DNA of 64,000 bases from Candidatus Altimarinota bacterium. Lineage in GTDB: Bacteria > Patescibacteriota > Gracilibacteria > CAIRYL01 > GCA-016699755. Position numbers and translations under genes: made by a program. The notes below the pieces were generated by a model, which did not search any database, was not told the DNA's origin, and worked only from the letters and a program-made list of their open reading frames with translations. The stretch's first letter is position 1. The number at the start of each line of letters is the position of its first letter. Location: contig OY760935.1 in NCBI GenBank assembly GCA_963664295.1, forward strand, positions 672,001 through 736,000. The letters run 5' to 3'. Shown here piece by piece: positions 37,584-59,494 of this stretch.

Positions 37584-38520
37584 TGTCATTGCGGACATCT
37601 TGGGCTCTTTTTGGATTGTCATTGCGGACTTTTTGGGTTGTCATTGCAGGCTTGATCCGCAATCTCCTTATCCATTCGTGCAAGTCCTGCCAGGTAATTC
37701 AACAGTAATGACAACGGGAGATCCTTCGCTTCGCCTAAAGGCTCGCTCAGGATGACAGAAAAAGGGGCAAGAGGTGTCATTGTGAGCGAAAAACACCACC
37801 TTGCTGTCATTCTGAGCGTAATGAAATGGAGCGAAGAATCTCCTTGAACATGCGCTCAAAATCTATCTCGGTTATTACAACAGTAATGACAACGGGAGAT
37901 CCTTCGCTTCGCCTAAAGGCTCGCTCAGGATGACAGAAAAAGGGGCAAGAGGTGTCATTGTGAGCGAAAAACACCACCTTGCTGTCATTCTGAGCGTAAT
38001 GAAATGGAGCGAAGAATCTCCTTGAACATGCGCTCAAAATCTATCTCGGTTATTACAACAGTAATGACAACGGGAGATCCTTCGCTTCGCCTAAAGGCTC
38101 GCTCAGGATGACAGAAAAAGGGGCAAGAGGTGTCATTGTGAGCGAAAAACACCACCTTACTGTCATTCTGAGCGTAATGAAATGGAGCGAAGAATCTCCT
38201 TGAACATGCGCTCAAAATCTATCTCGGTTATTACAACAGTAATGACAACAGGAGATCCTTCGCTTCGCCTAAAGGCTCGCTCAGGATGACAGAGTAAGTA
38301 AGAGAGAGGGAGAATGACAGAAAAAAGGAGAGGTCAAGATAACAGAGTAAAGGGGATCAAGACAACAAAGAAAAGGAGGCAAGATGACAAAAAAGCACTT
38401 AAGACAAAAAAATAGCCTGCTTCGTCATCCGCCTAAGCAAATCCCTTGCAATAACAAAAAAATAAAAACAATTAAAAAAAATTCATTGCCCCAGATAAAG
38501 CCAAATAATCAACACTAAAA
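37584..38520. repeat. GTCATT-tagged REP/REPIN-like composite element (locus 2), containing a tandem array and a ~290-bp tail shared with locus 3
   Basis: Short TGTCATTGCGG units, inverted REP pair, right-hand ..ATGACA units; 38235-38520 nearly identical to 43327-43637. Confidence 0.9.
37701..38293. repeat. Tandem array of a 178-bp unit, about 3.3 copies
   Basis: AACAGTAATGACAAC recurs at 37701, 37879, 38057 and 38235; only two single-base differences seen. Confidence 0.97.
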
Positions 38521-44696: not shown

Positions 44697-45779
44697 CTAG
44701 AAATAAGCTTTTGGATTTTTCTTTACTCCATTGATCACAACCTCAAAATGAAGATGAATACCTGTTCTGCCATATACCCTACCAGTATTACCCATATAGC
44801 CAATTGGTGTTTTGCGAGATACCTTTTGCCCTTTTCGTACATAAATATCTCTCATGTGAGCATATAAGGTGGTCATGCCATTTCCATGATCAATTACAAC
44901 AACATTGCCATAACCTCCATTCCAACCTGACTCTGCACGAATAACAGTGCCACTTTCTGCTGCCCAAATTGTACTTCCACCAGCTTGCGCAATATCTACA
45001 GCATAATGTCCATAGCGATAACCTTGGGTGTATCTACCCTCACAAGGAAAAAATAAGGTACCATTGTAGGTACCTGTTGCTTGTGATCCTGCTGGTGCGT
45101 TTTTGTATACACCGCCAGCACTTGAGGCAATTGCAACTGGCACTTCTTTTTGAACTCCAGGAATAATAACAGCTTTTCCTGCAATTAATCCTTCTTCTTC
45201 ATCGATATTATTTTGAGCAATAATTTTATCTGCCTCAACTTTATATTCTTTTGCCAAACCAGCCACTGTTTCGTTCTTTTTTACAGTGTGCAAAAGCCCA
45301 TCTACAGGCAATATTTTTAATGTTTGCCCTGGCTTTAGGCTGTCTGGATTAGTTATGTCGTTATTTTGCACAACAGTAGCAACAGAAACACCATAACGAT
45401 AAGCAATACTGGAAACAGTATCACCAGACTCAACAATAATATCAACAACCTGCCCAACTCCTTCCCTGTTTCCTCTGCTGGTTTGAATTTCCGGCTTAAT
45501 TAAAAATCCTTCGTCTGTAAGTGCGATTGTTTCTTTAAAACTTTCTGCTGATGCCTCTTCAGGAAGCCAAAAATCCGCCTCACTCACAAAAAAAGCTGGT
45601 AAAATAGAAGAACTAACAAAAAACAAAACTCCAGCAACAACAACTCGAAAAAAGAAATTTTTTTCACTTGTTGTATAGGGTTTGTAAACTGGTTTTTTGT
45701 GACCCACTTCTTTTTTTATGCCCCTTAAGCGCTGATGGCGCATTTTTCTTGCCAATGTATTTGCTTTTGTAAAAACCAT
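44697..45779 (-). CDS. LysM x2 + M23 metallopeptidase
   Basis: Two LysM repeats; HYAVD, YAHM, HLHFEV. Confidence 0.93.
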   Translation of the reverse strand: MVFTKANTLARKMRHQRLRGIKKEVGHKKPVYKPYTTSEKNFFFRVVVAGVLFFVSSSILPAFFVSEADFWLPEEASAESFKETIALTDEGFLIKPEIQTSRGNREGVGQVVDIIVESGDTVSSIAYRYGVSVATVVQNNDITNPDSLKPGQTLKILPVDGLLHTVKKNETVAGLAKEYKVEADKIIAQNNIDEEEGLIAGKAVIIPGVQKEVPVAIASSAGGVYKNAPAGSQATGTYNGTLFFPCEGRYTQGYRYGHYAVDIAQAGGSTIWAAESGTVIRAESGWNGGYGNVVVIDHGNGMTTLYAHMRDIYVRKGQKVSRKTPIGYMGNTGRVYGRTGIHLHFEVVINGVKKNPKAYF

Positions 45780-45845
45780 ATTGTTTTTCGTCGAGCTATT
45801 TTACTTATTTTTACCAAAAAAAACAAATTTACTCAAGAGAGCTAA

Positions 45846-46520
45846 TTATTTACCAAAATTTCTTTGCACAGATTTATAATAAAAAATGGCTTCTTGAAGG
45901 TCTTTTTCAGTAAATTCAGGCCACATTTTATCCAAAAAATAAAGCTCGGCATAAGCTGATTGCCAAAGCATAAAATTGGATAATCTTTTTTTGCCACCTG
46001 TGCGAATAACAAGATTAATTGCTGGTAAATCCTCAGTATCAAGAAATTTTTCCAGATCTTTTTCTGTTATTTTTTGTGGAATTTTTTTAAATAATTTATT
46101 TACTGCTCTGATTATTTCATCTCTACCACCATAATTGATAGCAGGGCAAAAAATTAATTTTTCACCATTTTTTGTCTTTTCTTCTAGTTCTTTAAGTGCT
46201 TTTTGGCACGACTTGGGCAACTTGCTGACATCACCAAAAATTTTTACTCTTATTCCATTTTTTACAAATTTTTTCCATTTTTTAGCAAATTTCTCCAAAA
46301 GAGCAAAAAGATTATCAAGCTCTTTCTGCTCCCTGTTCATATTTTCTGTAGAAAGAGTATAAACTGTTAATATTTTTATTTCTGGATCATCTGCGCAAAT
46401 TTCCGTAAACATTTCTAAATTTTCCACTCCTTTTTTGTGTCCAAAAAATTTATTTTTACCAAGATTTTTTGCCCATCTCCTGTTGCCGTCCATTATTAAA
46501 CCTATGTGCATCAGAAACAT
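45846..46520 (-). CDS. uppS: Undecaprenyl diphosphate synthase (start 46520 or 46511)
   Basis: HIGLIMDGNRRWA, STEN..R, NYGGRDEI, IRTGG..RLSNFMLWQSAYAE. Confidence 0.95.
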   Translation of the reverse strand: MFLMHIGLIMDGNRRWAKNLGKNKFFGHKKGVENLEMFTEICADDPEIKILTVYTLSTENMNREQKELDNLFALLEKFAKKWKKFVKNGIRVKIFGDVSKLPKSCQKALKELEEKTKNGEKLIFCPAINYGGRDEIIRAVNKLFKKIPQKITEKDLEKFLDTEDLPAINLVIRTGGKKRLSNFMLWQSAYAELYFLDKMWPEFTEKDLQEAIFYYKSVQRNFGK

Positions 46521-46551
46521 TTTAATTGAGTTTAAAAAGAAAATAAACCTC

Positions 46552-48231
46552 TTAAATATTTGATTTTTTAATATCTTTTTTAGCCTCAAAATCAAGCGCC
46601 ATAAAATTAATCTCCAAAGGATAAGCGCTTTCCTCTGTAAATTTTATTTTTGCTTTTAGATAATTTCTTAATGCAATTCGGCTATGTGCAAAACTTTCTT
46701 TTAAGCCATCTGAATCCGCCACAGAGTCAGCATCCGCATTCCAAGTAAAACTTAATTTGTTTTCAATGAATTTATTTTTTTTATCCCAAATATCAAACTT
46801 AAGATTAAACGAACTACTGGAATGTAAACGACCTTTTGCGTAAAAATTTTTACTTTTTTTAATAGTTAATGGTTGGTCAAAATCAATTTCTCCGCTTTCA
46901 TAAGCGCAGGCAATATTTGTACCATTGTCATTAAGACCATCAAAAAGACAATAAACCTTTGAATTAAGAGCAGAACTACCATAAGTATAAGCATCATAAT
47001 TTATAAATCTTTCAATATTCCAACCTGTAATTTCACTCCAAGCATCATTTTCTACATCATAAGCAAGAACAAGATTATTAGTGCTACTATCACGAGCGCA
47101 AGTAATTAAAATCTTGCCAACACCGCTAGCATAAATTAGGTCAGAATTAGAAAAATCAATATCAGAAAAATAATCTCTACCCAAAGCAAAAGAAAGGCCT
47201 CTACTACTTGCTGATGTTTGCTGAAAAACACCAAATTTATTAACATAAAAAATTCCTTTAGAAGTTGAAGCAATTCCGCCTTTATTGCCAAAATTTCCAT
47301 CTTGAAAATTTACATTTGGAACTTCCGCAGTACTAGTCACCATATTAACAACTTTCAAATTAAAACCGGCTTTTCCCTGATCATAAACAGCAACTATTTG
47401 ATTACCAATTGCACCAATTTCCTTTAATTCACCAAAAGAATTATTCTGAAAACTTCCAGGACCACCATAATAAGAAAGATAATAAGTTGGATACCAGGAA
47501 CAAAAAGGCACACTTGAACCAGAATATTTATTGCTCCAAAGTAATTCTGTTTTATTACTACTAGTGTTGCCAGCAAATAATCTATCATCATGAATAAATA
47601 AGATTTTTGCCCTAGGAGAACCTGCGATCTCCGCAATTTGATAGCGTAAATCACCATCAACAGTGGCGCTTCCTCCTTCAGAGTCGGTAATAATCTCGCC
47701 GTCTTGAAATTCACCGCTAATGTTCATCAAAGTTAAAGTTCCGCTAGTCGTAGGTGTACCTGCTATATTTTGCAATAAAACAGCAGTTGCCCCACTTGTT
47801 GCACCTGTTAAAATTTTATTCCCTGTAAATTCGGTTGTTTTGTTTTTATAATCAAGAACTTTTTTGACAACATGAATTCTGTCCTCACCATTACAAATAT
47901 ACAAAAAATCACCATAAACAGCAGAAGAAAATGGCTCACTTGAACTAAAATCACTTTTAATAAGCTCAAAAGAGCTGTCACTGGGATTATAAAACGCCAA
48001 AGTTGTTCCATAAGTTAAAGCAATTTTATTGTCATATTCTTTGAGCATAGTGATTTTTTCACTCACTCCACTAAGCTCAAAAAATTCAGTAATTCCCTTT
48101 CTCTTGCGCAAAATACCATTGCCTTCATAAAATAAATTTTCCAACCTAGTACAATGGTCTTTGTTTATTAAGCTTGGTAAATCTTTTTTGTTTAAGCCTT
48201 TTTTTGTGCCATAAAAAATTTTTTTCTCCAT
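46552..48231 (-). CDS. Putative podoviral nozzle / DNA-stabilisation protein (P22 gp10 / T7 gp12-like beta-propeller)
   Basis: N-terminal GLN...LEN....G.LRKRKG, beta-repeat composition, LAYDVENDAWS; directly follows the adaptor-like gene. Confidence 0.6.
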   Translation of the reverse strand: MEKKIFYGTKKGLNKKDLPSLINKDHCTRLENLFYEGNGILRKRKGITEFFELSGVSEKITMLKEYDNKIALTYGTTLAFYNPSDSSFELIKSDFSSSEPFSSAVYGDFLYICNGEDRIHVVKKVLDYKNKTTEFTGNKILTGATSGATAVLLQNIAGTPTTSGTLTLMNISGEFQDGEIITDSEGGSATVDGDLRYQIAEIAGSPRAKILFIHDDRLFAGNTSSNKTELLWSNKYSGSSVPFCSWYPTYYLSYYGGPGSFQNNSFGELKEIGAIGNQIVAVYDQGKAGFNLKVVNMVTSTAEVPNVNFQDGNFGNKGGIASTSKGIFYVNKFGVFQQTSASSRGLSFALGRDYFSDIDFSNSDLIYASGVGKILITCARDSSTNNLVLAYDVENDAWSEITGWNIERFINYDAYTYGSSALNSKVYCLFDGLNDNGTNIACAYESGEIDFDQPLTIKKSKNFYAKGRLHSSSSFNLKFDIWDKKNKFIENKLSFTWNADADSVADSDGLKESFAHSRIALRNYLKAKIKFTEESAYPLEINFMALDFEAKKDIKKSNI

Positions 48232-48236
48232 AAAAA

Positions 48237-48833
48237 TCAGTAAAAATCACCACAAGAAACATGAATTAGGGGAATATTTCTGTTATAAGTGGAAAATAAA
48301 TTTTCTAATATTTTTTTTAATCTATTTTGAGAATTTTCTTCGTCTTCAAGCTCCTCATCATCAATTGCAAAAAATTGATCTAAAGCTTGTTCATAAAAAA
48401 TTTTAAACTCATAATCACCAGTTAATGTGTCTGTATCTGCATCTAGCTCAGCTATATTTGGTATATATCTAAGCAAAAAGCTACCATTTAAATTGCCAGT
48501 AAAATGAACTTTATCGCCAGCCAAATAAAAACCTGGAGCACTTGCTCCATATTCAGTGGTGAAAAATTTTGAAACAGGATCACCAGCAGAATTAACAGAA
48601 AAAAAACCACAATTCAGACTGTTAATATGAGCAAAATCACTTGGTAAATCATATTCAACAGTACCACCCGAAACAGAATATGATTGAGTTTTAATAAATT
48701 TTTCCGGCTCAATTCTTACAAGCTGTTCATAAAGCCATTTTTCTGCATAATTAAGCCATTTATAAAATTTTTCATCTGTAATATTTTCGCCTTTATAGTC
48801 CTCAAAGGCATTTCTAAGCTCTAAAACATTCAT
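48237..48833 (-). CDS. Putative phage head-tail adaptor (tail tubular A / gp4-like)
   Basis: M...EL...D..F..WLN.A, G..EYDLPSDF, LRYIP...L..D.D motifs typical of adaptors. Confidence 0.65.
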   Translation of the reverse strand: MNVLELRNAFEDYKGENITDEKFYKWLNYAEKWLYEQLVRIEPEKFIKTQSYSVSGGTVEYDLPSDFAHINSLNCGFFSVNSAGDPVSKFFTTEYGASAPGFYLAGDKVHFTGNLNGSFLLRYIPNIAELDADTDTLTGDYEFKIFYEQALDQFFAIDDEELEDEENSQNRLKKILENLFSTYNRNIPLIHVSCGDFY

Positions 48834-48840
48834 AAAAAAA

Positions 48841-48870
48841 CAAAAAAAGATCAGTTCATCTAATCTTTTT
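48841..48870 (-). terminator. Leader terminator directly before the adaptor gene
   Basis: Minus strand AAAAAGATTAG-ATGAA-CTGATCTTTTT then TTGTTTTTTT-ATG. Confidence 0.55.
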
Positions 48871-48913
48871 ATTCATTTTAATATTCTCTGCGTTTTTTTA
48901 TGTTTATATTGTT

Positions 48914-48942
48914 ATTTTATCAAATCTAGATAAAAATCACAA
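48914..48942 (-). promoter_or_regulatory. sigma70 promoter of the adaptor-nozzle module
   Basis: TTGTGA-17 nt-TAAAAT with extended -10 TG; sequence-similar to the 53837-53865 promoter. Confidence 0.6.
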
Positions 48943-48977
48943 ATTTTTTTTCGCACTTTTTTGGCGCAAAAATTTTT

Positions 48978-49703
48978 CTATTTAAATTTTTCTCTCAAAA
49001 TATCCGCTGTCTTATGAACCAAAGATTGAATTCTTTTTCCAATAGAATTTACAATTTTTTGCTGATTATTTTTTAATTTTTCTGCAAAATTCCAAACAAG
49101 TGATAAATTTTTGAGTGCATTTTGCAAATCGTTGTCTAAATTTTTATCCAAAAAATTTTCAATTCCGGCTTTTACTGCATTTCCAATTAGATCAGATTTG
49201 TTTTTTAAAACATCTAAATCGCTAACATTAGACAAAAATCCACATTCTATTAAAACAGCCAAAGGCGCAGTATCATGCACAATTCCCAATTTACCATAAC
49301 GACTTAATCTCTCGCTTTTTGCTCCCCTATTTTTTAAGCCGGTTTTTTGGCAAATTTCCTTCAAGATATTTTCCGCCAATTTTTTGGACTCCCCGGAATT
49401 GTGATAATAAAAAGCTTCTGCACCTTTGGCCAAACTGCCAGCAGAATTACAATGAATACTAACAAGCAAAGAATTTGTGCAATCCAAACCAAAAGAATTT
49501 ATTTTTTTAATTTTTTCCGCCAAGGTTAAATCTTCATCAACGCCAATATAAACAACATTTTCTCCAAAAATAGAGCGGGTAATTTGTAAATTTAATTCCC
49601 TTTCTGTTGTGCCATCTTTGGCAATTGCACCAGGGTCATTTTTTTTAAAAAAATTTCCACTTTTTCCATGACCTGCCACAATAAAAATTTTTTCAGTTTT
49701 CAT
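48978..49703 (-). CDS. N-acetylmuramoyl-L-alanine amidase (Amidase_3), endolysin-like
   Basis: AGHG..DPGA..E, SIHCNS, LIECGFLSN; ATG at 49703 overlaps the upstream TGA. Confidence 0.9.
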   Translation of the reverse strand: MKTEKIFIVAGHGKSGNFFKKNDPGAIAKDGTTERELNLQITRSIFGENVVYIGVDEDLTLAEKIKKINSFGLDCTNSLLVSIHCNSAGSLAKGAEAFYYHNSGESKKLAENILKEICQKTGLKNRGAKSERLSRYGKLGIVHDTAPLAVLIECGFLSNVSDLDVLKNKSDLIGNAVKAGIENFLDKNLDNDLQNALKNLSLVWNFAEKLKNNQQKIVNSIGKRIQSLVHKTADILREKFK

Positions 49704-49942
49704 GCTCCAAAAACAAAAGTAATAAAAGTCCAAACAACACCAATCAAAGAGCCGGAAATCGCAACACCACCAACAATAAAAGCTTTCCAAAGTTCAAGTT
49801 TTTTTACTCTTTGGTTCATTTTTTCCATACTCTTTGCCATTTCCCGATGTACCTGATTATTTTCATCAAATTTGCTGTTTATATGTTGTTTTAAGCCATC
49901 AATTCGTTCTGCAATTTGTCCTAAATTTAACTTTTTCGCCAT
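49700..49942 (-). CDS. Small coiled-coil + C-terminal TM protein, holin/XhlA-like
   Basis: 80 aa; coiled coil ending RVKKLE then FIVGGVAISGSLIGVVWTF; coupled to the amidase. Confidence 0.55.
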   Translation of the reverse strand: MAKKLNLGQIAERIDGLKQHINSKFDENNQVHREMAKSMEKMNQRVKKLELWKAFIVGGVAISGSLIGVVWTFITFVFGA

Positions 49943-50511
49943 TTTGTAGATGATAAATTTCCAATAAAATTAAGATCGTCTCTTTCTGATTCACTTGCCG
50001 GAGTTGTTTCTGAGGCAATAAGCCCATCAAAAACAAAAGCTCCACAGCGTTCGTGAATTTCCCGGCTTAATTCCGAGCAATAATATTTATTTTTATCATG
50101 CGCCACAACAAAGCTCTGTTTTTGCAAAAATTTTAATTTCGCACAAACAACAGCTCTCCAAATAAGTCCCACAAAATCATACAAAAAACCTTTTTTAACA
50201 TATTGCAAAGCAGTTTTGCGCACATTACGAAGTCGCCAAACAGAACGAAAAACATCATGCGATCCAGAGCGCCTGCGCACATCACGCAAAGAAACAATGC
50301 GCACACCAGAGCAATAATCATCTTTGAAAAAAAACTTACGCACAGAAAAATCACTCTCAAGACATTTTCCTCTGCCAATATACAAAATTGCATGGGAATA
50401 AGGGGAGTTTGTGCCCCAGCGAATTAAGCGAGAAAGTAAACTTTTTCCGTCTCGATATAAAAACAAATCACCAACCCGCAAATTCCGCACCAAAGTTTTA
50501 TTATTCTCCAT
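49927..50511 (-). CDS. Permuted papain-like NlpC/P60 amidase (YiiX/YebB family)
   Basis: GDLFL..LSRLIRWGT.S.YSHA (His first), Y.YD, YYCSEL (Cys later). Confidence 0.85.
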   Translation of the reverse strand: MENNKTLVRNLRVGDLFLYRDGKSLLSRLIRWGTNSPYSHAILYIGRGKCLESDFSVRKFFFKDDYCSGVRIVSLRDVRRRSGSHDVFRSVWRLRNVRKTALQYVKKGFLYDFVGLIWRAVVCAKLKFLQKQSFVVAHDKNKYYCSELSREIHERCGAFVFDGLIASETTPASESERDDLNFIGNLSSTKWRKS

Positions 50512-50854
50512 TTTGAATTACAAAAGAGTTTTTTAAAATAAACTCATTAAGACCATTGGCATCTTGTTCAACAAAACCACCAACAGAAGAAACAAGCTCA
50601 ACAATTTCTTCATATTCTTTGCTGGTAATAATAATTTCTCCATTTATTTCTCTTTCTATCTTTAAGTCGTCAATAATTTGTTCTGCTCTTTTGTGACAAA
50701 AAATAAGCCAATTTTCACCATTTTTTTCTGCCAATAATGGCTCACCCAAAACCACAGAAAAATCATATCTTTTTTGATTGTGCATAAAGCCAGCATTTTC
50801 CATTATTCGCAAATCAGCTTCTTTGTTCGCAGGAACAGCAATAAATACATTCAT
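50501..50854 (-). CDS. Hypothetical protein in the virion cluster
   Basis: 117-aa frame overlapping the next gene. Confidence 0.65.
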   Translation of the reverse strand: MNVFIAVPANKEADLRIMENAGFMHNQKRYDFSVVLGEPLLAEKNGENWLIFCHKRAEQIIDDLKIEREINGEIIITSKEYEEIVELVSSVGGFVEQDANGLNEFILKNSFVIQNGE

Positions 50855-50913
50855 AAAAAATAAGAAAAATTAAAAATTTTCATCTTCATTAATTTCCCAA
50901 TAAAACAAGGCAT

Positions 50914-51636
50914 TTAAGATAAATAGCTACCAGAACTCAAAGCATTATAAAAATTAGCAACACGCAAAGCAGAAAAATATTCAGGATCAATGCGAAAATA
51001 ACGACATTCTCCTTGCAAGTAATAATTTGAACTAGAATCTTTGCCAATAGCAAAAGCATTAGTGGAACTAGTGTCATAAGCAACACCTGTCTGACTATCA
51101 CTACCAAATTCAGCGCCATTGATATAAATTTTGACACCAGAAGAAACGCTACCGGTGATAGTAAGAACAAAAGGAGTGTCAGCAGAAATATAATCAGAAA
51201 CAGAAGAAATAGTAATTAACTTAACAGCGCCATCAAGAGAATATTGGAATTTAATCTCATCAGTAGAAGCATAATAATTACAGCGTGGATAAGCACTATA
51301 GCCAAAAAGAGCATAGAAAAAATTATGATTTACAGAAAGGCTATCAAGAGAATAAATACCCGTAATGCAAAAATTACTCAATGTTCCCCAAGGTACACTT
51401 TCGCCAGTTGGTTTTTTTAAATAATCATCGCCAGCAAAAGAATAGCCAATAGTAGCAACAGTGGTATCATTTGTGTCAGCCTCAGATGTAGAGCCATTTT
51501 GTATGGTGATATTATTTTTACTTCTATCCTGCCAAACTTGCTCATTATTACCAACTTTGCCATCTAAAAAAACAATAGAATTATCTTTTCTTAAACTACT
51601 ACTAATGCCTATGTTTAATGTTTTTGCAATATCCAT
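50914..51636 (-). CDS. LamG/ConA-like jellyroll protein, candidate head-spike fibre
   Basis: WQDRSKN, YSFAGDDY, VKIYINGAE, FAIG...Y.L.G...FRI, LRVANFY; follows the spike-base gene. Confidence 0.7.
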   Translation of the reverse strand: MDIAKTLNIGISSSLRKDNSIVFLDGKVGNNEQVWQDRSKNNITIQNGSTSEADTNDTTVATIGYSFAGDDYLKKPTGESVPWGTLSNFCITGIYSLDSLSVNHNFFYALFGYSAYPRCNYYASTDEIKFQYSLDGAVKLITISSVSDYISADTPFVLTITGSVSSGVKIYINGAEFGSDSQTGVAYDTSSTNAFAIGKDSSSNYYLQGECRYFRIDPEYFSALRVANFYNALSSGSYLS

Positions 51637-51640
51637 AAAA

Positions 51641-51901
51641 TTAATAAATAGCAATAATGTGTTGAGCAGTAGTGTCAGTTGCTTTTACACGAGTTGTATT
51701 AACAGGCAAAAAAGAACCATCAGGCACATTCTTAAAAACAACAGCTGAACTTTCAGAATTTAAAACTGAAATATCTCCCCCACTACCAACATAAAGAGAA
51801 CGAGCAGAAATGCTCAAATCATTGTCATCATCAGGTGTCACAGAAGCAAATTGATAAGCTGGTGACACAGAAATTTTTTGATCAGTCACTGGATTAGACA
51901 T
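51641..51901 (-). CDS. Head spike base protein, Rcc01079 (RcGTA GhsA)-like family
   Basis: SPA..F..VTPDD..DL....RSLYVG.GGDI.V.......V.F.NVP.G..LPV...RV.AT.TTA..I.A.Y, 86 aa. Confidence 0.8.
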   Translation of the reverse strand: MSNPVTDQKISVSPAYQFASVTPDDDNDLSISARSLYVGSGGDISVLNSESSAVVFKNVPDGSFLPVNTTRVKATDTTAQHIIAIY

Positions 51902-51923
51902 AATTAAAATAAAAAATGAAAAA

Positions 51924-52070
51924 TTATTTTTTAGGGGGTCTGCCTCTTTTTTTAGGCATAAATTTCATTTTAATAATTTTTGCTTCATCATTTTTAATCA
52001 TTTTTTTTGCTTTCCAAGCGGGCACTGCAACAATGCGCCCAAAGCGATTTTTTATTTTTTGTGTTTGCAT
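51924..52070 (-). CDS. 48-aa basic protein with C-terminal AT-hook-like KKRGRPPKK
   Basis: Below the ORF-track cut-off; manual translation MQTQKIKNRFGRIVAVPAWKAKKMIKNDEAKIIKMKFMPKKRGRPPKK*. Confidence 0.6.
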   Translation of the reverse strand: MQTQKIKNRFGRIVAVPAWKAKKMIKNDEAKIIKMKFMPKKRGRPPKK

Positions 52071-52077
52071 AGTTTTA

Positions 52078-52111
52078 TTAAAAAATCATGACGGGCATAT
52101 AAAAATGCCCG
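52078..52111 (-). terminator. Hairpin/terminator after the major capsid gene
   Basis: CGGGCAT-6 nt-ATGCCCG stem (52092-52111), T-run shortly after on the minus strand. Confidence 0.55.
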
Positions 52112-52122
52112 CACAAAATTCT

Positions 52123-52989
52123 TTAAACAGAAATTTGAACATCAATAAGACGATTAGCACCTTCTGTAAAAGTTTTTACACCAAATTTAGCCTGAGATTT
52201 AAAAAGATAAACAAAATCATCTCTAAATTCAGGAGGAGTAATTTGCACTTTTGGTTTAATATTAGCCGCAAAACAAATAGGCTTACCACCACCAGCAAGA
52301 GCATGTTTAGTGCCAGTAGCAGTGACAAGATTGTTAGAACAATAAATTTTAATACCAGCAACAGTACCAACATAACCTCTAGTCACAACATTATCACCCA
52401 TTTGACCAGATCTTAAAACAGCTTCAGATTGCAATAAAAGAGCTTTTTCTACAGGTGAAATAATCAAAAATCTATCATCTTGCGGAACATTATTCACATC
52501 AAGAATTTGCCCAATACCAACAATAAATTTATAAATATTGTCTTTAGTAAGAACAGCCGGGTTAGTAGCAGTACCACCAACAAGCTCAGCATCAGCAGTA
52601 TGTTCAGCATTAGCATACTCAGCCATAATCGCATCATCATAAGCACTAGCAAAACTCTCAGCCGCATCAGCAATAAATTGATCCTTAGGACTAACTTTCA
52701 TGTATTTAACATCTTCTTCAGAAAGTTTCACAGCCCAAGCTTTACGAGTATCAAGAGAAAAAGTTTCATCAGCAACAGTAAGATCCTGCACAGTAGGAGA
52801 AGAATAAGAAGTCTCAAGATTACCAACAGAGATTTTATTAACACGAGGAAAATGCACAGTATCATTGCCATCAAAACTTCCTTCAAATTTTGTGTTAGCA
52901 ATATCCATACCAACAAACCTCTCACGAAGAACCTCCTGCAAAACCGAACTCCAAGCCTCAGCATTCAAACCCGCAACATTATTAGCCAT
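52123..52989 (-). CDS. Major capsid protein (HK97 fold, P22-coat/podovirus-like)
   Basis: E.WS..L...L, FEG.....DTVHFPR, A..A...D..I, LD..NVP.DDRFLIISP, G.VGTVAG.KIY.SNNL, FGVK; strongly T-ending codons. Confidence 0.85.
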   Translation of the reverse strand: MANNVAGLNAEAWSSVLQEVLRERFVGMDIANTKFEGSFDGNDTVHFPRVNKISVGNLETSYSSPTVQDLTVADETFSLDTRKAWAVKLSEEDVKYMKVSPKDQFIADAAESFASAYDDAIMAEYANAEHTADAELVGGTATNPAVLTKDNIYKFIVGIGQILDVNNVPQDDRFLIISPVEKALLLQSEAVLRSGQMGDNVVTRGYVGTVAGIKIYCSNNLVTATGTKHALAGGGKPICFAANIKPKVQITPPEFRDDFVYLFKSQAKFGVKTFTEGANRLIDVQISV

Positions 52990-53053
52990 AATAAAAATAG
53001 AAAAAATAAAACAAAAAAATATTCATATTCAAATTACTCAGTCAAAAACAAAC

Positions 53054-53686
53054 TCAAGCAAAACGCACTTCACCAAAACGATTTTCACATTCAGAAATAT
53101 ATTTTTTTCTTTGATAATCAGTGAACACATCAAAATCATCTGTATTGACCAAATAAAATTCATCAGCAGTATTCACATTTGACCTAGGGGGCATAGTTGC
53201 AACAGAACGCAATTCCTCCCTTTTTTTGTCCGCCTCATTGCGAATACCAAGAATAGCAATAGATTTAGCAAGAGCAGTCTCAAAAGGCACGCCATAATCA
53301 ATCAGCGTCGTCATCTCCTGAGAAAACTTCTCGCCATATCTTGCATCAAACTCAGTCTCCGAAAGCCCGCTTTTTTCACGAGCTACCTGCAAAGCAGACT
53401 GATAATTAAAATTTTCACTTTTTTGCTCCGATTTCTGATCTTCTACTTTTAAAATTGTGCCAATTTCTCTCTGTACCCACTCCGGCGCAGAAGAAATATC
53501 TTCATCATTTTGCGCTTTTTCAAGCCATTTATTAACAGTCGCCTCTCGCACAATTTTTCTATCCTCAAGTTTTTTTTCATTATTATCACAAGGTTCATCG
53601 CCAGCATCAACGGTGTCCTCAACTGACTCATCACAAGGTGGCAAAACCTGCTCATCTTCCATGGTGGTCAAATTTTCTTTTTCCAT
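53054..53686 (-). CDS. Putative capsid scaffolding protein
   Basis: Acidic disordered N-terminus, helical body, short C-terminal helix; immediately upstream of the capsid gene. Confidence 0.6.
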   Translation of the reverse strand: MEKENLTTMEDEQVLPPCDESVEDTVDAGDEPCDNNEKKLEDRKIVREATVNKWLEKAQNDEDISSAPEWVQREIGTILKVEDQKSEQKSENFNYQSALQVAREKSGLSETEFDARYGEKFSQEMTTLIDYGVPFETALAKSIAILGIRNEADKKREELRSVATMPPRSNVNTADEFYLVNTDDFDVFTDYQRKKYISECENRFGEVRFA

Positions 53687-53785
53687 AAAAATCGTGAAAA
53701 ATCTTAAAAATCAAATGGCAGTAAAATACTGCAAATTCTCATTTTAATTTTTTTCTACCGACTTAAATCAAATGAAACATAAAAA

Positions 53786-53813
53786 CAAAAAAGATTGGCA
53801 AAAATCCAATCTT
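53786..53813 (-). terminator. Leader terminator of the scaffold-capsid module
   Basis: Minus strand AAGATTGG-ATTTTTG-CCAATCTT-TTTTG. Confidence 0.65.
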
Positions 53814-53836
53814 CATTTTTATCATCATTTTATTTA

Positions 53837-53865
53837 ATTATATCAAATTCTACAGAAAAACACAA
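53837..53865 (-). promoter_or_regulatory. sigma70 promoter of the scaffold-capsid module
   Basis: TTGTGT-17 nt-TATAAT with extended -10 TG. Confidence 0.7.
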
Positions 53866-53877
53866 ATTTTTTTCATT

Positions 53878-54408
53878 TTACTTTTGCGCCAAAAATTTTT
53901 TCACCTTCACAAAAATAATCTTCAAAAGCTCAATTACTGCAGAAAAGACAAAAATCAAAAGTGTATAATAAAAACATGCAAGCGCAAAAAGCTGACCTTC
54001 ATAATCATAAGCTGGCTCAAAAGCATGGTACCCACTGCCATCAGGAAACACTATTCTTCCTGTAGGCGTATACTCAGCGCCATAAGAAAGAAAAATTTGA
54101 TCATGAAGATAGCCAAAAAACCAAGCAAAAATCAAAACAAAAACAAATGAAACCAAAAAAGAGTTAGTTATATTTTTTACTGGCTTATAAATGAAACTTA
54201 AAGTAAAAACTGGCAACCATGCGAGAAACATAATTACAAAAAAAGCCAAAGACATTGCAATAAAAAATAAAATATCGTCCTTCAGCGGAAGTGAACGATA
54301 CTTGATCGCCCCAATACACAAAACAATAAAAATAGGTGCATAAAACCCAAGCAAACTTCTCCATGCTTGATCTTTTTTACCAATATTGTTTTTAATTTTG
54401 TTAGTCAT
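53878..54408 (-). CDS. Four-TM membrane protein, candidate immunity protein 2
   Basis: Paralog of the upstream gene (WLPVFTLSFIYKPVKNITNSFLVSF; GAEYTPTGRI). Confidence 0.7.
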   Translation of the reverse strand: MTNKIKNNIGKKDQAWRSLLGFYAPIFIVLCIGAIKYRSLPLKDDILFFIAMSLAFFVIMFLAWLPVFTLSFIYKPVKNITNSFLVSFVFVLIFAWFFGYLHDQIFLSYGAEYTPTGRIVFPDGSGYHAFEPAYDYEGQLFALACFYYTLLIFVFSAVIELLKIIFVKVKKFLAQK

Positions 54409-54907
54409 AAAATTTTTTCTTTAAATAATTAAAAACACTACCTAGGCAAGAAAACACAAAAACCTGCAAAATAAACAAAATAAGAACAATAATAAAGCCG
54501 TCTCTATCAACTTCGGCAGATGGGCTATAAAAATAAAGATTATGCTCCATAGAAAAACCGATCCTGCCGGAAGGCGTAAAAACTGCCCCATGCCAAAGCC
54601 AAATTTTTTTATAAAGAAAAACACTTAAATAATAAAACAAAGAAATAAATGCAAAAGAAACAACAAAAGAATTAACAATGTTTCTGGCAGGTTTATAAAA
54701 AACACTTAAAATAAATATAGGAACCCAAACAAAAAGACAATAATAAGATAAAAAAAATAAAAATGACCAATAATTAACATCAAATCCTGCCCTAAATAAA
54801 TTGTCAAAATTTACAACCCAGGGCAATAGAGCAAAAGCAAGTGCTCCCCTAATTGATTTGAAGCTATCTCTAATAAAATTCTCAATTTTTTTAGTTTCGC
54901 TGGTCAT
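54401..54907 (-). CDS. Four-TM membrane protein, candidate immunity protein 1
   Basis: WVPIFILSVFYKPARNIVNSFVVSF; GAVFTPSGRI; start overlaps the toxin 3' end. Confidence 0.7.
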   Translation of the reverse strand: MTSETKKIENFIRDSFKSIRGALAFALLPWVVNFDNLFRAGFDVNYWSFLFFLSYYCLFVWVPIFILSVFYKPARNIVNSFVVSFAFISLFYYLSVFLYKKIWLWHGAVFTPSGRIGFSMEHNLYFYSPSAEVDRDGFIIVLILFILQVFVFSCLGSVFNYLKKKFYD

Positions 54908-55982
54908 AAAGTTGGTAACCAAAATCTAAATAATATGAATCACCAGGGTTATCTTTTCCTAAATTATCAATTGCTGCTGCATCTTTAATTTTATCGTAAT
55001 CAAGATCAAAATGATTAGCAGTATATCCAATAATCATATTACCTGGTGCATCATATCTTATCAAATCTCCATTAAATATATATGAATAATAATATCGTTC
55101 GATTTTATCACCACTGCCTGTTCCTGATTTTTGACCAAAAATTGGATGATAAGAATGAACATAATCATAGGGACCATTGCGACGAAATAGACCTAAAAAA
55201 TCGCCCAAGCTTAATAAGCTTGGTATGCCCGGTGTCGGCTTATCAAAAACTAATATTGAAAATACTTTATTAGGCGTATAAGGGCGCATAAATAATATCC
55301 TCAAGTCTCTAATTGCCTTTTCGCATTCCTCAAAAAACAAATCCTGAATATCAAAAGGGCAAACATCATTTAGTCCACAAAAAGTAAATCTGCCTACTAA
55401 ATCTTTAGGATCAATCGAATTGCTCTCATCAAAAAAGCTCACTCTGACAATTGTCTCCCATGTAGTTTGAATTCCAAGGACTTTATTGACAATATTAGTA
55501 ATGGCTTGTGAAGGATTATCCACCTCCAAAATCCCAGGTAAAATCTCACCAGTGTAAGGATTATAAAAATCAATCTTGCCTCCTTCTGGCTTAAAAAATT
55601 CCTCTTCACCTGCAGATAAATTCATTTGAACTTCTGCATTTGTGCTTGTATACAAGCCGTCCACAGTCATCTTGTCTCCATTATCATCCAAAACAAAAGT
55701 GCCATCAGGCATATAAATATTACCATTTTCATCAATAGACCTACCTGCATCTTGCAACATTTCAACAATATCCTCCTTTGTTTTTGCATCTTTTTTAATC
55801 TTTTCCTGTAAAACATCACAAGGAATACAAGCGGGAGAATAAATCCACATTTCAGTACCGTCATTGCAAGTGACGCCATCATCAGAAATTCCCCCATGAT
55901 AAGAACAGCAACCACGCATAGAACCTCCGGCAGAGGCTAGTTGTGTTTTTCTGTGAGATGTTAATTTAAGCTCTTCAGACAT
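54891..55982 (-). CDS. Putative polymorphic toxin: Cys/His-rich N-terminal motif + C-terminal Ntox44-like domain
   Basis: N-terminal RGCCSYHGG..CNDG; C-terminal NGPYDY..YIFNG....YDAPGNMIIGY....DNPGD...GY..Y matches the Ntox44 GNxxxG/DxxxD pattern. Confidence 0.65.
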   Translation of the reverse strand: MSEELKLTSHRKTQLASAGGSMRGCCSYHGGISDDGVTCNDGTEMWIYSPACIPCDVLQEKIKKDAKTKEDIVEMLQDAGRSIDENGNIYMPDGTFVLDDNGDKMTVDGLYTSTNAEVQMNLSAGEEEFFKPEGGKIDFYNPYTGEILPGILEVDNPSQAITNIVNKVLGIQTTWETIVRVSFFDESNSIDPKDLVGRFTFCGLNDVCPFDIQDLFFEECEKAIRDLRILFMRPYTPNKVFSILVFDKPTPGIPSLLSLGDFLGLFRRNGPYDYVHSYHPIFGQKSGTGSGDKIERYYYSYIFNGDLIRYDAPGNMIIGYTANHFDLDYDKIKDAAAIDNLGKDNPGDSYYLDFGYQLYDQRN

Positions 55983-56000
55983 AATAAAATCTAAAAATTT

Positions 56001-56327
56001 CTAAAACCTTGGAGATAAATTTTCAATTTCTTCGTCAAGCCCTCTTTCCAACTGATCTTCCTCAAACGCAGTGCGAAAAAAAGCAATCAACTCACCCATT
56101 CCTCGCTTAAATTCACGCAAATCTTTTTTAAAATTCTTCTGTGACTGTAAATAAACCAAAACCTCCATTAAATACAGCAAATCACTCTCATTTTCTTGCC
56201 AAAATTTTGCAAAAATCCTGCGTTTTAATTTACTTCCCAAAATAGACTCCGAATAGGTTTCTTCATTTTTATTTTTTGTAGCAAAAAGCCGTCTCAAAAA
56301 ACCAATTTTTTTTAACATATTCAACAA
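56001..56327 (-). CDS. Small helical hypothetical protein downstream of the portal gene
   Basis: 108-aa frame; position typical of portal-associated small genes. Confidence 0.6.
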   Translation of the reverse strand: MLNMLKKIGFLRRLFATKNKNEETYSESILGSKLKRRIFAKFWQENESDLLYLMEVLVYLQSQKNFKKDLREFKRGMGELIAFFRTAFEEDQLERGLDEEIENLSPRF

Positions 56328-56335
56328 ATAAAAAA

Positions 56336-57874
56336 TTATTTAATTTCCAAATCGCCTTCTTCTAAAGGCAAACCAAGAATTTGCGATCTTTTTATAATCG
56401 CTTTCTTATGCGCCAAAGAGCCTGTTGGCAAAACTTTAAGCATCTCATCAAGACGCGCCAACTCCGCAGTATAACTTGGATAAACACCACTACGAGAATC
56501 AATTTCAATACTAAATTCGTTTTCAGAAATTAACTTACTAACCATGCCCAAAGTCACTCCCTCTGCGACTAAAGTCTGGTCATCATGTGCTACAAAATCA
56601 CGAATTGAAGTCAAAACACACTCAATAGCAAAACGGATTTCCTCTGCATTTTGTTCCATAATCTGACGAACAAATGCATTAGAATTTTCCTCTCTCAAAA
56701 GAGCATGTCTAGCTGTGTCATTATTAGAAACTGATAAGTCATCAAGGTTAATACCAATTCTTTTTACAATTTGATCATATTTTTCAAACAAGCGCTCAAA
56801 CTCAGAAGTAAGCTGTTCGCCAATAATAGACTTAATTTTTCCATATTCTAATTGTCCGTTGTCATCAGCCTCAACAGGAATAATGCCCATTTCTCCGCGA
56901 CTTTTTGCCTCCAAAGCTTTATAAACCCAATTTTGAAACTCAGCAATTTTGCTCTTTTTCATAGTGATTGTATATAGCGGATCAACACGATTAGAAATTG
57001 CAGATATTGCCATATTCATCAACTTTCTTGCCTCAATATGCAGGTTATAAAGTAAATTTCCCAAACCAGCGTTATAAAAACCTTTCAAAGAAGAAAAACA
57101 AACAAAATGCAAAAGTGGCAAATAAGGATTACTATTTTTGTCCCAAAAAGGATAATTATCACCACAAGCCTTTTTTAAGCAAATAGCATTACTACCAGCC
57201 AAAACAAAATACTGTTTTTTACTTTTCGAAAAATAATGCACAAGCTCAACAAAGTCATCTTTATCATCAGAGCTTTCTCTGCCAGCAAATGGCACTCTGC
57301 CTAGTAAAACTTTTTTTGCTTCAGGAAAAAGCTGATGAAATTCATCAATTGAATAAAGATAAGAAAAAGCAATTTCATCAGCATCTAAACTTCCTCCCTC
57401 GGAACGAAGCTCACTGGCTTGCGGGTCAATCCAAACATCATTAATGGAGCAAGTTTCAAAACAAATTGGATTCCTAGCAGTGCCAGCGCCAATTTTGATA
57501 AAGGCATCACCAAAAAGAAGACCACGAAAAAAAGCACCTGATTTTTCAGTAAAAACCCTGGAAAAACCGCTCCTACTAAGCACAAAATCAAGACCTTTCC
57601 TTACTGCCTCATGCGAATTGCTATCAGCTAAATTACTCTTAAGACGAAAGTCCAATAGCTTCATTTTTGCCACAGTTTTCCAAAGAGCTTGAAAAAGCAA
57701 AAATCCATTTAATGTTTTTTTGGGACTTTTTTTCTCTGTTAAAAATTGATCTTGATATAAAACCTGTATTTTTGCACATTCTGCTGTTTTTTCATTTTTC
57801 TGAGCATTGGCTCTTTGCACAAGATTATCAACAAGCAAAAACTGCTTATTATCTGACAAATTTTCAATTTGCAT
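56336..57874 (-). CDS. Putative portal protein (P22/podovirus-like); start 57874 or 57913
   Basis: ~512 aa; LLFGDAFIK, VWIDPQA, NYPF...LP..H, GFY..GLG..L, M.I..I...V.P, G......TA; first gene of the head cluster. Confidence 0.75.
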   Translation of the reverse strand: MQIENLSDNKQFLLVDNLVQRANAQKNEKTAECAKIQVLYQDQFLTEKKSPKKTLNGFLLFQALWKTVAKMKLLDFRLKSNLADSNSHEAVRKGLDFVLSRSGFSRVFTEKSGAFFRGLLFGDAFIKIGAGTARNPICFETCSINDVWIDPQASELRSEGGSLDADEIAFSYLYSIDEFHQLFPEAKKVLLGRVPFAGRESSDDKDDFVELVHYFSKSKKQYFVLAGSNAICLKKACGDNYPFWDKNSNPYLPLLHFVCFSSLKGFYNAGLGNLLYNLHIEARKLMNMAISAISNRVDPLYTITMKKSKIAEFQNWVYKALEAKSRGEMGIIPVEADDNGQLEYGKIKSIIGEQLTSEFERLFEKYDQIVKRIGINLDDLSVSNNDTARHALLREENSNAFVRQIMEQNAEEIRFAIECVLTSIRDFVAHDDQTLVAEGVTLGMVSKLISENEFSIEIDSRSGVYPSYTAELARLDEMLKVLPTGSLAHKKAIIKRSQILGLPLEEGDLEIK

Positions 57875-57969
57875 AAAAATAGATAAAAATAAAAAACTTA
57901 TTTTTATGCTCATTTTTATAAATTTATATTTATCTATTTATTAAAACTAATTCACACAAATCTAATTAA

Positions 57970-57995
57970 CAAAAAAAGAAACTCTGCGATTTCTT
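57970..57995 (-). terminator. Leader terminator of the portal module (may also terminate MATE)
   Basis: Minus strand AAGAAA-TCGCAGAG-TTTCTT-TTTTTG; weak AT-rich stem. Confidence 0.45.
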
Positions 57996-58015
57996 CATCT
58001 TCATATTTCAAATAA

Positions 58016-58044
58016 ATAATACCAAAAAAAGCCCAAAAAATCAA
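58016..58044 (-). promoter_or_regulatory. sigma70 promoter of the portal module
   Basis: TTGATT-17 nt-TATTAT with extended -10 TG. Confidence 0.6.
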
Positions 58045-58050
58045 GCAAAT

Positions 58051-59391
58051 TCACTCTCCAAGCTGTTTTATGTGATAATTTGTATAAAAAATAGTAATCA
58101 CAGTAGTCACCCAATCAATACAAAAAATACCCAACCAAATCGCTAAAATTGGAAAATCAAAAACCTTAACCAAAACATAATAAACAGGCAAAGGTAAAAC
58201 AATTTGACGCAAAAAACTAATATAAAAAGCATAAGCCGGTTTTTTAATTGCCTGCAAAGTAGCCATATTCAAAGCCAAAAAAACATAAGACCAAGCAGAA
58301 AGAGACAATATTTTTAAGGCAATTCCGCCAATTTCAATAACTTTTTGATCATCACTAAAAAAGCTCATCAAATTATATGAAGCAAAAAAGATAAAAAGCA
58401 CTGAAAACAGCATAATAATAGAACCATATTTTATAGCTGTTTTGCGCACTTCGTTCATTCTTTGATAATTTCCCGCACCATTATTCTGACCAACAATAGC
58501 CAAAACAGCTATATTAAGACCCATAATAGGCAAAAGAAAAATCTGTTCAGCACGAGTCATAATTCCATAAGCCGCCACTGCCTCTTCTCCGTAAAATTTT
58601 AAAAAATAAGTAATTACAAAAATACCAAGAGCAATAGTCATCATGTTTACACTAGAAGGAAAACCTTGCTTGATAATTTCCCAATAAGCTTCTTTTCGAG
58701 GGCGCAAGTCAGATAATTTTTTAATATGCAAAAACCCCATTCTATAGCTTGTAATAGTAATATAAATAGTATTGATCGCCATAATCAAAACAGTAGCCAA
58801 AGCAACTCCTGAAATCCCCAAAGCAGGCACGCCAAAACCACCATACAAAAACCAAGGATCAAAAATTAAATTAAGAAAAAAGCCTAAAACCAATAAATTA
58901 CGATAAACTTTAGTATTACCAGAGGCAATAAGAGTGCTGTTAATAGAATGAGTAGTAATAAAAAAGAAAGTACCAAGAAAAATAATATTTATATAAGAGA
59001 GAGCTAAATCAAAAGATGCTTGACTTGTTGCAAGTAATTTAAATAAATATGGTGCTAAAAAAAGCCCAAAAAACATTAAAAAAACAGCAAAAATCATTCC
59101 AAAAGAAACAACTTGCGTTGAAAAAAGTCTGGCTTTTTCTTTTTCTCCAGCGCCCAAAGCATTTGAAATCAATGCAGATCCACCAGTAGAAATACCATTC
59201 GCAAAAGACAAAATAATAAAAAACACTGGAAAACTAATAGACATAGCCGCCAGCGCCTCAGTGGACATTTGCCCCGCAAAATAAGTATCCACCACGTTAT
59301 ACATGGTCTGAAAAAAGAAACCAATACTCGCAGGCATTGCTATTTTGGCGATCAAAGATGAAATTTTTCCTTCTACAAGTTCTGCTTTCAA
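58051..59391 (-). CDS. MATE family efflux transporter
   Basis: IAMPA.....Q.MYNVVDT, NLIFDP, GISGVALAT, VGQNNGAGN; about 12 TM. Confidence 0.94.
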   Translation of the reverse strand: MKAELVEGKISSLIAKIAMPASIGFFFQTMYNVVDTYFAGQMSTEALAAMSISFPVFFIILSFANGISTGGSALISNALGAGEKEKARLFSTQVVSFGMIFAVFLMFFGLFLAPYLFKLLATSQASFDLALSYINIIFLGTFFFITTHSINSTLIASGNTKVYRNLLVLGFFLNLIFDPWFLYGGFGVPALGISGVALATVLIMAINTIYITITSYRMGFLHIKKLSDLRPRKEAYWEIIKQGFPSSVNMMTIALGIFVITYFLKFYGEEAVAAYGIMTRAEQIFLLPIMGLNIAVLAIVGQNNGAGNYQRMNEVRKTAIKYGSIIMLFSVLFIFFASYNLMSFFSDDQKVIEIGGIALKILSLSAWSYVFLALNMATLQAIKKPAYAFYISFLRQIVLPLPVYYVLVKVFDFPILAIWLGIFCIDWVTTVITIFYTNYHIKQLGE

Positions 59392-59494
59392 ATATATATA
59401 AAAAGAGCTGAATAATTATATCAAAACAAACAAAAAATAAAACCTTCAAAAACATAATTAAAATAGAAAACTTATAATTAAAAATTTTTCTAGG

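Follow-up and report, generated by a model that had tools for sequence, protein, structure and literature searches.

Promoter-then-hairpin gates ahead of split, phage-derived virion modules in two genera of Patescibacteria

The virion gene cluster and its three gates

We analysed a stretch of 64,000 nt (the window) corresponding to positions 672,001-736,000 of the single-contig, 1,215,430-bp genome of a Candidatus Altimarinota bacterium (33.5% GC, 100% complete by markers), whose genes were read under genetic code 11. Between a MATE gene and the undecaprenyl diphosphate synthase gene, the window holds a minus-strand run of phage-derived virion genes going from the portal to the likely tail nozzle. 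This run is divided into three modules by what we call gates, each represented by a sigma70-type promoter followed, inside its own transcript, by a hairpin with a U-tract. Head, portal, terminase and tail genes are present with intact reading frames, the terminase ones at a distant locus, and counterparts were found in a genome of a different genus of the same family (G004). Our best reading is that of a domesticated, split podovirus system resembling a gene transfer agent (GTA).

The first module opens with the gene of a P22-like portal protein of 512-525 amino acids (aa) (56336..57913 (-)), which has a weak match to PF16510, 55-56% identity to its G004 homologue and 21-24% identity to the proteins located between TerL, the large terminase, and the scaffold in two of the phage-like loci described below (L057 and L058). 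It is followed by an open reading frame (ORF) of 105-108 aa (56001..56327 (-)), also found behind the portal gene in G004 (103 aa, 45% identity), and by a three-gene insert. The second module starts with a likely scaffold gene (210 aa; 53054..53686 (-)), which is related (E 3e-8) to a family located directly 5' of the capsid gene in phage-like loci and is 42% identical to G004. The major capsid protein comes next (288 aa; 52123..52989 (-)), with matches to PF25209, PF11651, phrog_267 and solved phage capsids, and 72% identity to G004. The remaining run of this module (48978..52070 (-)) is made of a 48-aa ORF, an 86-aa fibre-like ORF, a LamG-domain ORF, a 117-aa ORF, a C92-like ORF, an 80-aa ORF and an amidase; the amidase is endolysin-like, and the 80-aa ORF, with its C-terminal hydrophobic stretch, may be considered a holin candidate. 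The third module consists of an SU10-type head-tail adaptor (198 aa; 48237..48833 (-); PF24175, E 2e-9) and, placed after it, the likely tail nozzle (559 aa; 46552..48231 (-)), which is 27% identical to the same-position protein of L058 and has no Pfam match above the cut-off. The nozzle and scaffold, as well as the small terminase mentioned below, were assigned by position or weak homology.

A first-pass annotation of the window had proposed promoters and hairpins at the three module heads, and we recovered each of these six elements on the minus strand where it had been placed, with 17-bp spacers and a TG extended -10. Promoter 1 (TTGATT-17-TG.TATTAT; 58016..58044 (-)) lies 5' of the portal module, promoter 2 (TTGTGT-17-TG.TATAAT; 53837..53865 (-)) 5' of the scaffold/capsid/lysis module and promoter 3 (TTGTGA-17-TG.TAAAAT; 48914..48942 (-)) 5' of the adaptor and nozzle genes. 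A scan with the generic consensus is at background in this AT-rich DNA (64 promoter-like sites against 70.9 expected) and is uninformative; promoter 2 is not among the 60 matches listed, and the gate 2 hairpin is the only gate hairpin listed. By a promoter matrix specific for this genome, trained without the three module promoters, promoters 1, 2 and 3 score 11.6, 10.6 and 12.5 and rank 202, 239 and 175 among 693 upstream regions, 266 of which reach a score of at least 10 against 17.7 expected. The pattern TTG-N14-TG-N-TANNWT has 63 matches in the genome, and 45 of them are intergenic, as against 9.5% of the DNA. The three promoters are ordinary mid-strength sigma70 housekeeping promoters of this genome. 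The first-pass worry that such matches might occur at background frequency is true of the generic scan, and the genome-specific matrix and the extended -10 pattern speak against it. The homology claimed for the last two promoters is modest (28 of 41 nt common to promoters 2 and 3, rank 82 of 20,910 pairs) and does not extend to promoter 1, which has just 21 of 41 nt in common with either of them, against a mean of 19.4. As for other sigma factors, the genome has six matches to ECF-type sigma-region-4, four of them above the cut-off, and none of these genes is near the modules.

The hairpins and their U-tracts are at 57970..57996 (-) for gate 1 (-4.2 kcal/mol, with one G-C pair, hence weak), 53786..53813 (-) for gate 2 (core -7.6 to -8.9 kcal/mol) and 48841..48870 (-) for gate 3 (core -6.7 to -7.6 kcal/mol). 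They start 20, 23 and 46 nt past the -10, in line with the 20-45 nt given earlier, and gate 3 ends 7 nt 5' of the adaptor ATG, from which its tract is separated by seven T's (about 8 nt had been noted). In the fold test gates 2 and 3 stand out (z-scores -4.6 and -4.3, with 0/200 shuffles each, and 0/300 shuffles as good in a separate hairpin test), and gate 1 does not (z +0.19). The AAGA…TCTT stem noted for the gates in the first pass is not a specific motif; ordinary terminators have this stem base too (14 of 260 hairpins between genes), and we discarded it as a recognition motif on this ground. The distance from the upstream stop to the gate hairpin is 54, 64 and 109 nt, where 133 ordinary hairpins have a median of 26, and the leaders of the three module promoters measure 80-150 nt against a median of 24 nt for promoters scoring at least 11. 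No promoter scoring more than 0.3 occurs downstream of any of the three hairpins. Rfam gave nothing at gathering level in window positions 45,000-60,000, and the Rho N-terminal domain was not found in the window genome or in G004. Two further hairpins lie in the cluster. The first, with a T-tract (-9.2 kcal/mol), overlaps the MATE stop and the -35 of promoter 1 and may be the MATE gene's own terminator; the other, 3' of the capsid gene (52091..52112 (-); -15.9 kcal/mol extended), is strong and is a further internal stop needing read-through.

The order of promoter and then terminator is rare in the genome. Two cut-offs were applied, both chosen after the sites were seen. At the loose one it occurs in 12 of 652 upstream regions, three of them among the seven of the cluster (p about 2e-4); the strict one leaves 9 of 652, two of them among the same seven (p about 3e-3). 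An earlier version of the test gave 5 of 58 long leaders with a gate against 0.5 expected. Several of the nine gates outside the cluster precede genes such as L10-like and argininosuccinate-synthase-like ones (named from sequence), which are genes known to be attenuated.

Some of these other sites deserve a mention of their own. Leaders of 74-108 nt with a promoter and then a terminator precede host genes at genome positions 89,971, 620,730, 1,102,570, 70,376 and 1,081,660, and are riboswitch or attenuator candidates. At genome position 944,782 a gate-like match has a better-looking promoter downstream. Other copies of the cassette were also considered as possible marks of phage modules, an idea that we rejected since the other gate-like matches precede host genes.

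The insert of the first module (53878..55982 (-)), which is not at the G004 portal locus, comprises a 363-aa ORF and two membrane ORFs and looks like a polymorphic toxin/immunity insert; the MuF-like position is what we take to be its parallel behind the portal gene. The 363-aa ORF has a weak Ntox44-like lead (atlas score 0.82) and no Pfam match, and one related-strain contig ceases to match it near 55650, pointing to a likely variable C-terminus. Another related-strain contig passes over 270 nt of the second membrane ORF, and nowhere in the cluster are coding scores lower than in these two membrane ORFs. Elsewhere in the window, related short pseudo-ORFs (RRFFAPFH…QNDSK) at 37807-38037, 37985-38215 and within 59297-59674 (window regions 37807-38215 and 59297-59715) suggest an intergenic repeat family.

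Gates in a second genus and in phage-like relatives

In G004 the genes for scaffold, capsid, C92, the 80-aa protein, amidase, adaptor and nozzle and those for the portal and the 103-aa protein are on different contigs, among different host genes. The scaffold and portal modules each start with TTGACT-17-(T/C)ATAAT, scoring 16.5 and 11.7, respectively. The scaffold leader has two hairpins with U-tracts (-16.0 and -8.8 kcal/mol; z -4.1) and the portal leader has one (-6.1 kcal/mol; z -3.4). The gene 5' of the G004 scaffold module is divergently oriented, and therefore the hairpins of this gate cannot be the terminator of that gene. Directly 5' of the G004 adaptor gene there is a hairpin with a U-tract (-10.4 kcal/mol), the counterpart of gate 3; as it has no promoter of its own, it must be read through from upstream.

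As relatives we considered the capsid family at large, in which 57 homologues were found, the query included, and 70 loci were retrieved. The 60 closest loci (L009-L068) were analysed, the ten most distant being omitted, and we call them phage-like, as they are not proven to be free phages. This PF25209-capsid phage family, known here from metagenomes, is the source of the capsid, scaffold, portal, adaptor, nozzle and TerL genes and has the same gene order; unlike the host-borne set, its loci keep TerL, portal, a small ORF, scaffold and capsid contiguous and carry large post-nozzle genes. In 48 of the 60 loci TGA reads better as a sense codon, by a heuristic, whereas the host-borne copies use code 11, so the capsid family spans hosts with two genetic codes.

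The gate test on these relatives used the generic consensus and a hairpin of -4 or better followed by four U's, on 79 distinct regions 5' of a scaffold, portal or adaptor gene, position and size being the basis on which most families of the latter two were assigned. A sigma70-like promoter was found in 16 of the 79 (6% expected on shuffled sequence), and a gate in 1/79, as against 5/6 host-borne module heads by the same test. The matrix trained on the host gave no gate in 78 phage-like regions, but it under-scores their promoters. Promoters at these places would hence be in part ancestral, and the terminators seem to have been added in the host-borne lineage. The gates are real, gate 1 weakly so, and their logic is conserved across the two genera. 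Their first-pass reading as control elements is partly supported, namely by their rarity in the genome, by their recurrence at other sites in G004 and by their near absence from the phage-like loci.

Two observations belong to these comparisons without bearing on the gates. In G004 a 544-aa ORF located 3' of the nozzle gene (L004:5306-6940 (+)), with a DUF3383 segment and BNR and lectin-like matches, is likely a receptor-binding tail protein. It was not found in the window genome, which has the LamG and fibre-like ORFs in its place, and the LamG ORF was not found in G004 or four other relatives; adsorption parts hence differ between the two genera. Eight phage-like loci (L022:7430-7576, L023, L024, L027, L029, L033, L060 and L062) have in common, 5' of the scaffold gene, a TTGA-16-TATACT promoter with an apparent spacer palindrome and a conserved leader of ~85 nt with two small hairpins, possibly an operator plus a translational autoregulation element.

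Terminase locus, repressor and signs of domestication

The terminase Pfam families PF03237, PF17289 and PF04466 have no match in the genome, and the terminase was found via a neighbour, because the gene directly 5' of the portal in L057 is 54% identical to genome positions 1,199,821-1,201,122 (-). This gene, 470 kb from the cluster, is an intact TerL (phrog_2, E 1e-27; 42-45% identity to annotated terminases) in an operon divergent from a repressor-like gene. The first-pass annotation was thus right that a terminase locus would be found elsewhere in the genome and mistaken that further copies of the cassette could reveal it, the terminase locus of the window genome having none. The operon consists of DUF5659 (79 aa), another 79-aa ORF, likely the small terminase by position, and TerL; the promoter preceding it scores 14.2, and its leader contains no hairpin.

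The divergent gene encodes a predicted CI/LexA-like repressor of 221 aa with a helix-turn-helix (HTH) and an S24 domain. The same four genes are present in G004 between other host genes, with a TerL 67% identical. Both repressors have C/H and R at the catalytic Ser and Lys positions, which were placed by means of the LexA autocleavage motif. A second ORF next to the repressor gene, with an S24 domain alone, we ascribe to the host locus, because its G004 counterpart is located elsewhere. Besides this repressor, an HTH-only paralogue (genome positions 352,816-353,217; L132) adjoins a radC-like gene, and similar HTH matches were found in three relatives without terminase (L129-L131).

DUF5659 is single-copy in the window genome and present in 20 of 151 genomes of the class. 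Its structural model is confident (pLDDT 93.6) and has no clear match among solved structures (best Z 4.0-4.7, best E 0.26), the models matched being viral DUF5659-like ones; a homologue search returned DUF5659 itself alone, and a literature search found no paper on it. Being the first gene behind the switch and the sole candidate travelling with it, DUF5659 is, by position only, a candidate antiterminator.

Domestication by the host, already suggested in the first pass, is well supported by intact frames in two genera, by a single clade, by mostly synonymous strain differences and by split sites that are retained. Identity to G004 is 72% for the capsid, 67% for TerL, 55% for the portal and 38-60% for the others, which overlaps with that of 19 host genes (median 54%). 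The host-borne capsids form, together with three unplaced proteins, one clade (SH-aLRT 100 in a quick tree), and the TerL of the window genome and that of G004 group together. The GC content of the cluster matches that of the genome, its flanks are host genes with no linked integrase or replication module, and no att-like repeat flanks it, the longest repeat between the cluster ends being 11 nt; the sole tyrosine recombinase of the genome is a XerC/D-like gene among host genes. In comparison with a related strain from one seawater sample, and relying on single contigs at depth <5, the portal gene has 21 synonymous and 9 non-synonymous differences (30 of 31 listed; 141:537 sites), i.e. a ratio of about 0.11, and 32 synonymous and 14 non-synonymous ones were counted among the 46 coding differences listed. 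The gate 3 leader, so far as it is covered, has none of the listed differences, a weak sign.

Leader termination, its alternatives and known systems

We propose, at a little less than even confidence, that the split modules are held by leader terminators and opened together by an antiterminator once the distant repressor is lifted. Precisely, the cluster would be one part of a podovirus-derived gene set that the host lineage keeps at separate chromosomal sites, with a sigma70-type promoter at the head of every structural module and a transcript that likely stops at the leader terminator. In the OFF state the hairpins would terminate transcription, leaving leader RNAs of 45-75 nt, and the repressor would block the DUF5659-terminase promoter; without Ser and Lys at the catalytic positions, its release would occur otherwise than by RecA autocleavage. 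DUF5659 would then make RNA polymerase read through the gates, so that all the modules come on together, and the particle would package host DNA and be released by the amidase and the holin candidate. The single parts of this proposal differ in strength. Leader termination at the gates is probable, a trans-acting read-through factor has close to an even chance of existing, and its identity with DUF5659 is doubtful. That the particle is a DNA-transferring GTA is tentative, the chances being somewhat below even. A bolder version, in which an independent, podovirus-derived Patescibacteria GTA was divided into portal, capsid/lysis, tail-base and terminase modules, its structural modules gained leader terminators and DUF5659 represents a new antiterminator family under a non-cleavable, RogA-like repressor, we consider rather unlikely; it would mean convergence on the Caulobacter RogA-GafZ logic with unrelated parts.

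Several findings weigh against this proposal. As regards the gates, the gate 1 hairpin, with the z-score given above, is not the minimum-energy fold, and in a comparison with convergent gaps the gates are among the weakest 4%, 15% and 19% of 26 hairpin-bearing gaps (36 examined). The gate 3 promoter has no counterpart in G004, where an ungated extended -10 match also lies 5' of the C92, 80-aa and amidase genes, and no common element was found between -35 and -10 across the five promoters (three here and two in G004). As regards the factor, the Q-like or NusG-paralog regulator expected in the first pass did not turn up: PF06530 matched in neither of the two genomes (PF06323 and PF03589 were not searched), and each has one NusG. 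Elsewhere in the class DUF5659 is usually 5' of other mobile-element ORFs, several of them primase-like, and not of virion genes, and it occurs in 0/60 phage-like loci, which mostly span the morphogenesis region alone. As regards the particle, the distribution is narrow (capsid in 2 of 41 relatives, TerL in 2 of 20 genomes of the order), and of 400 further genomes of the phylum 2 yielded capsids, all of them distant. A search of the genome with 83 profiles derived from related phage loci gave no homologue of the large post-nozzle proteins, which are likely ejection proteins, a fast-diverging kind, so that DNA delivery is at most tentative. The low depth behind the strain comparison counts on this side too.

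The alternative that survives best, though we regard it as unlikely, is that the gates are fixed, leaky attenuators that damp constitutive promoters, the control being exerted by the repressor on the terminase operon and DUF5659 acting at initiation as a Cro-like protein or an activator. With hairpins that are weak by the standards of this genome, that of gate 1 folding no better than its shuffles, the gates may be leaky. Neither a known antiterminator family nor a common binding element was found, and DUF5659 sits in the Cro position. Furthermore, a sigma70-like promoter lies 5' of the scaffold in 12 of 36 phage-like cases and in several of them has a palindrome visible in its spacer; this suggests that the ancestral control acted at initiation. 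G004, however, has two strong hairpins in series before the scaffold, and a steady leak through the amidase and holin-candidate genes would presumably be costly. The codon usage of the capsid gene, at the 98th percentile of the genome coding score, would also fit bursts of strong expression.

Control of translation by the leader RNA, whose long hairpins would hide the start region, or attenuation coupled to short upstream ORFs, whose translating ribosomes would melt the hairpins, is improbable; neither would need a trans-acting antiterminator. This alternative draws on extended folds (gate 3 and the G004 portal leader) in which the leader pairs with the T-rich tail adjoining or covering the start codon, and on short ORFs in 4/5 leaders that begin with ATG and extend into the hairpin or through it. 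At this base composition, however, an ATG would turn up roughly once in 60 nt, the G004 scaffold leader has no upstream ATG, the leader peptides have no common sequence, and gates 1 and 2 end about 100 nt 5' of the start codon.

It is still less probable that the hairpins are insulators, ending the upstream genes or host read-through as the T4-type PeSL elements do, and that the promoter matches are unused. In favour of insulators, all three upstream genes in the window are co-oriented with the modules, AAGA…TCTT hairpins are common as ordinary terminators, and the G004 adaptor hairpin has no promoter. The PeSL elements too combine a sigma70 promoter and a terminator hairpin at module boundaries, and one PeSL group has an AGNA-loop-TCNT stem; in the available text of the two reports, their stems are mostly between -35 and -10 or over a promoter box, with the presumed role of halting transcription that arrives from upstream (PMC2839356, PMC4122927), whereas here the stems are 20-46 nt 3' of the -10, inside the promoter's own transcript. 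PeSL elements are also multicopy homologous cassettes, and the cassettes here are only weakly similar to one another. Moreover, the G004 scaffold gate follows a divergent gene, the three window hairpins are unusually far from the upstream stops and are followed by no promoter above the threshold given earlier, and the promoters score like real ones, as the two of G004 do. The weakest alternative, a decaying prophage remnant with a pattern due to chance in AT-rich DNA, could appeal to the generic promoter scan at background, weak gate 1, narrow distribution and missing ejection proteins, but is very improbable and largely refuted by the conservation in G004, where the gates recur, the genes being intact in both genera with identities of 38-72%, much as for host genes, with modules split at different sites yet retained and a synonymous excess in the related strain.

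The first-pass annotation had likened the gates to lambda pR'-tR'/Q, and lambda Q uses an element between -35 and -10. According to the available text of the papers, AlpA of P. aeruginosa and GafZ of Caulobacter use such an element as well (PMC7969949, PMC11150451). The AlpR/AlpA system combines a repressor, an antiterminator and a leader terminator, and AlpR autocleaves (PMC7969949). In Caulobacter, RogA is a LexA/cI-like repressor without catalytic residues (PMC9632790); it keeps gafYZ repressed, and GafZ acts as the antiterminator of the GTA cluster (PMC11150451). As far as these sources go, our system resembles AlpR/AlpA and lambda Q in having a repressor over a small gene and a sigma70 promoter followed by an intrinsic terminator at more than one target locus. 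It differs from AlpR in that the repressor is without the autocleavage residues, and from AlpA and Q in that no element was found in the -35/-10 spacer. In addition, unlike lambda Q, there is no Q-family match here, and no clear fold match to a solved antiterminator was found for DUF5659.

The likeness to the Caulobacter crescentus GTA is closer. Both have phage-derived virion genes away from any replication or integrase genes, regulators encoded at another locus, an S24-domain LexA/CI-like repressor without catalytic residues and, judging here from sequence, putative terminators between promoter and structural genes. The present system differs in its podovirus-type (P22/SU10-like) particle genes, in the terminase lying within the operon under the repressor and in the Patescibacteria host. 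It has several short, promoter-proximal intrinsic terminators, where the Caulobacter cluster, in the text available, has three 150-bp repeats after the first gene, and no GafY/GafZ-like gene was recognised at its switch, nor a common spacer palindrome. By analogy, it may work like the Caulobacter RogA/GafZ circuit; it is a putative GTA, and no match places it in a known antiterminator family. A literature search found no description of such a system, and the related titles and abstract openings did not appear to describe one.

A GTA-like particle here would be an independent case of domestication by splitting and terminator gating; the analysis also gives a concrete test for DUF5659, a family of unknown function. 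Patescibacteria genomes are stripped-down, and keeping about 15 kb of phage-derived genes in two genera implies a benefit. If the particle is GTA-like, it would represent a route by which these symbionts may exchange genes or act on their hosts.

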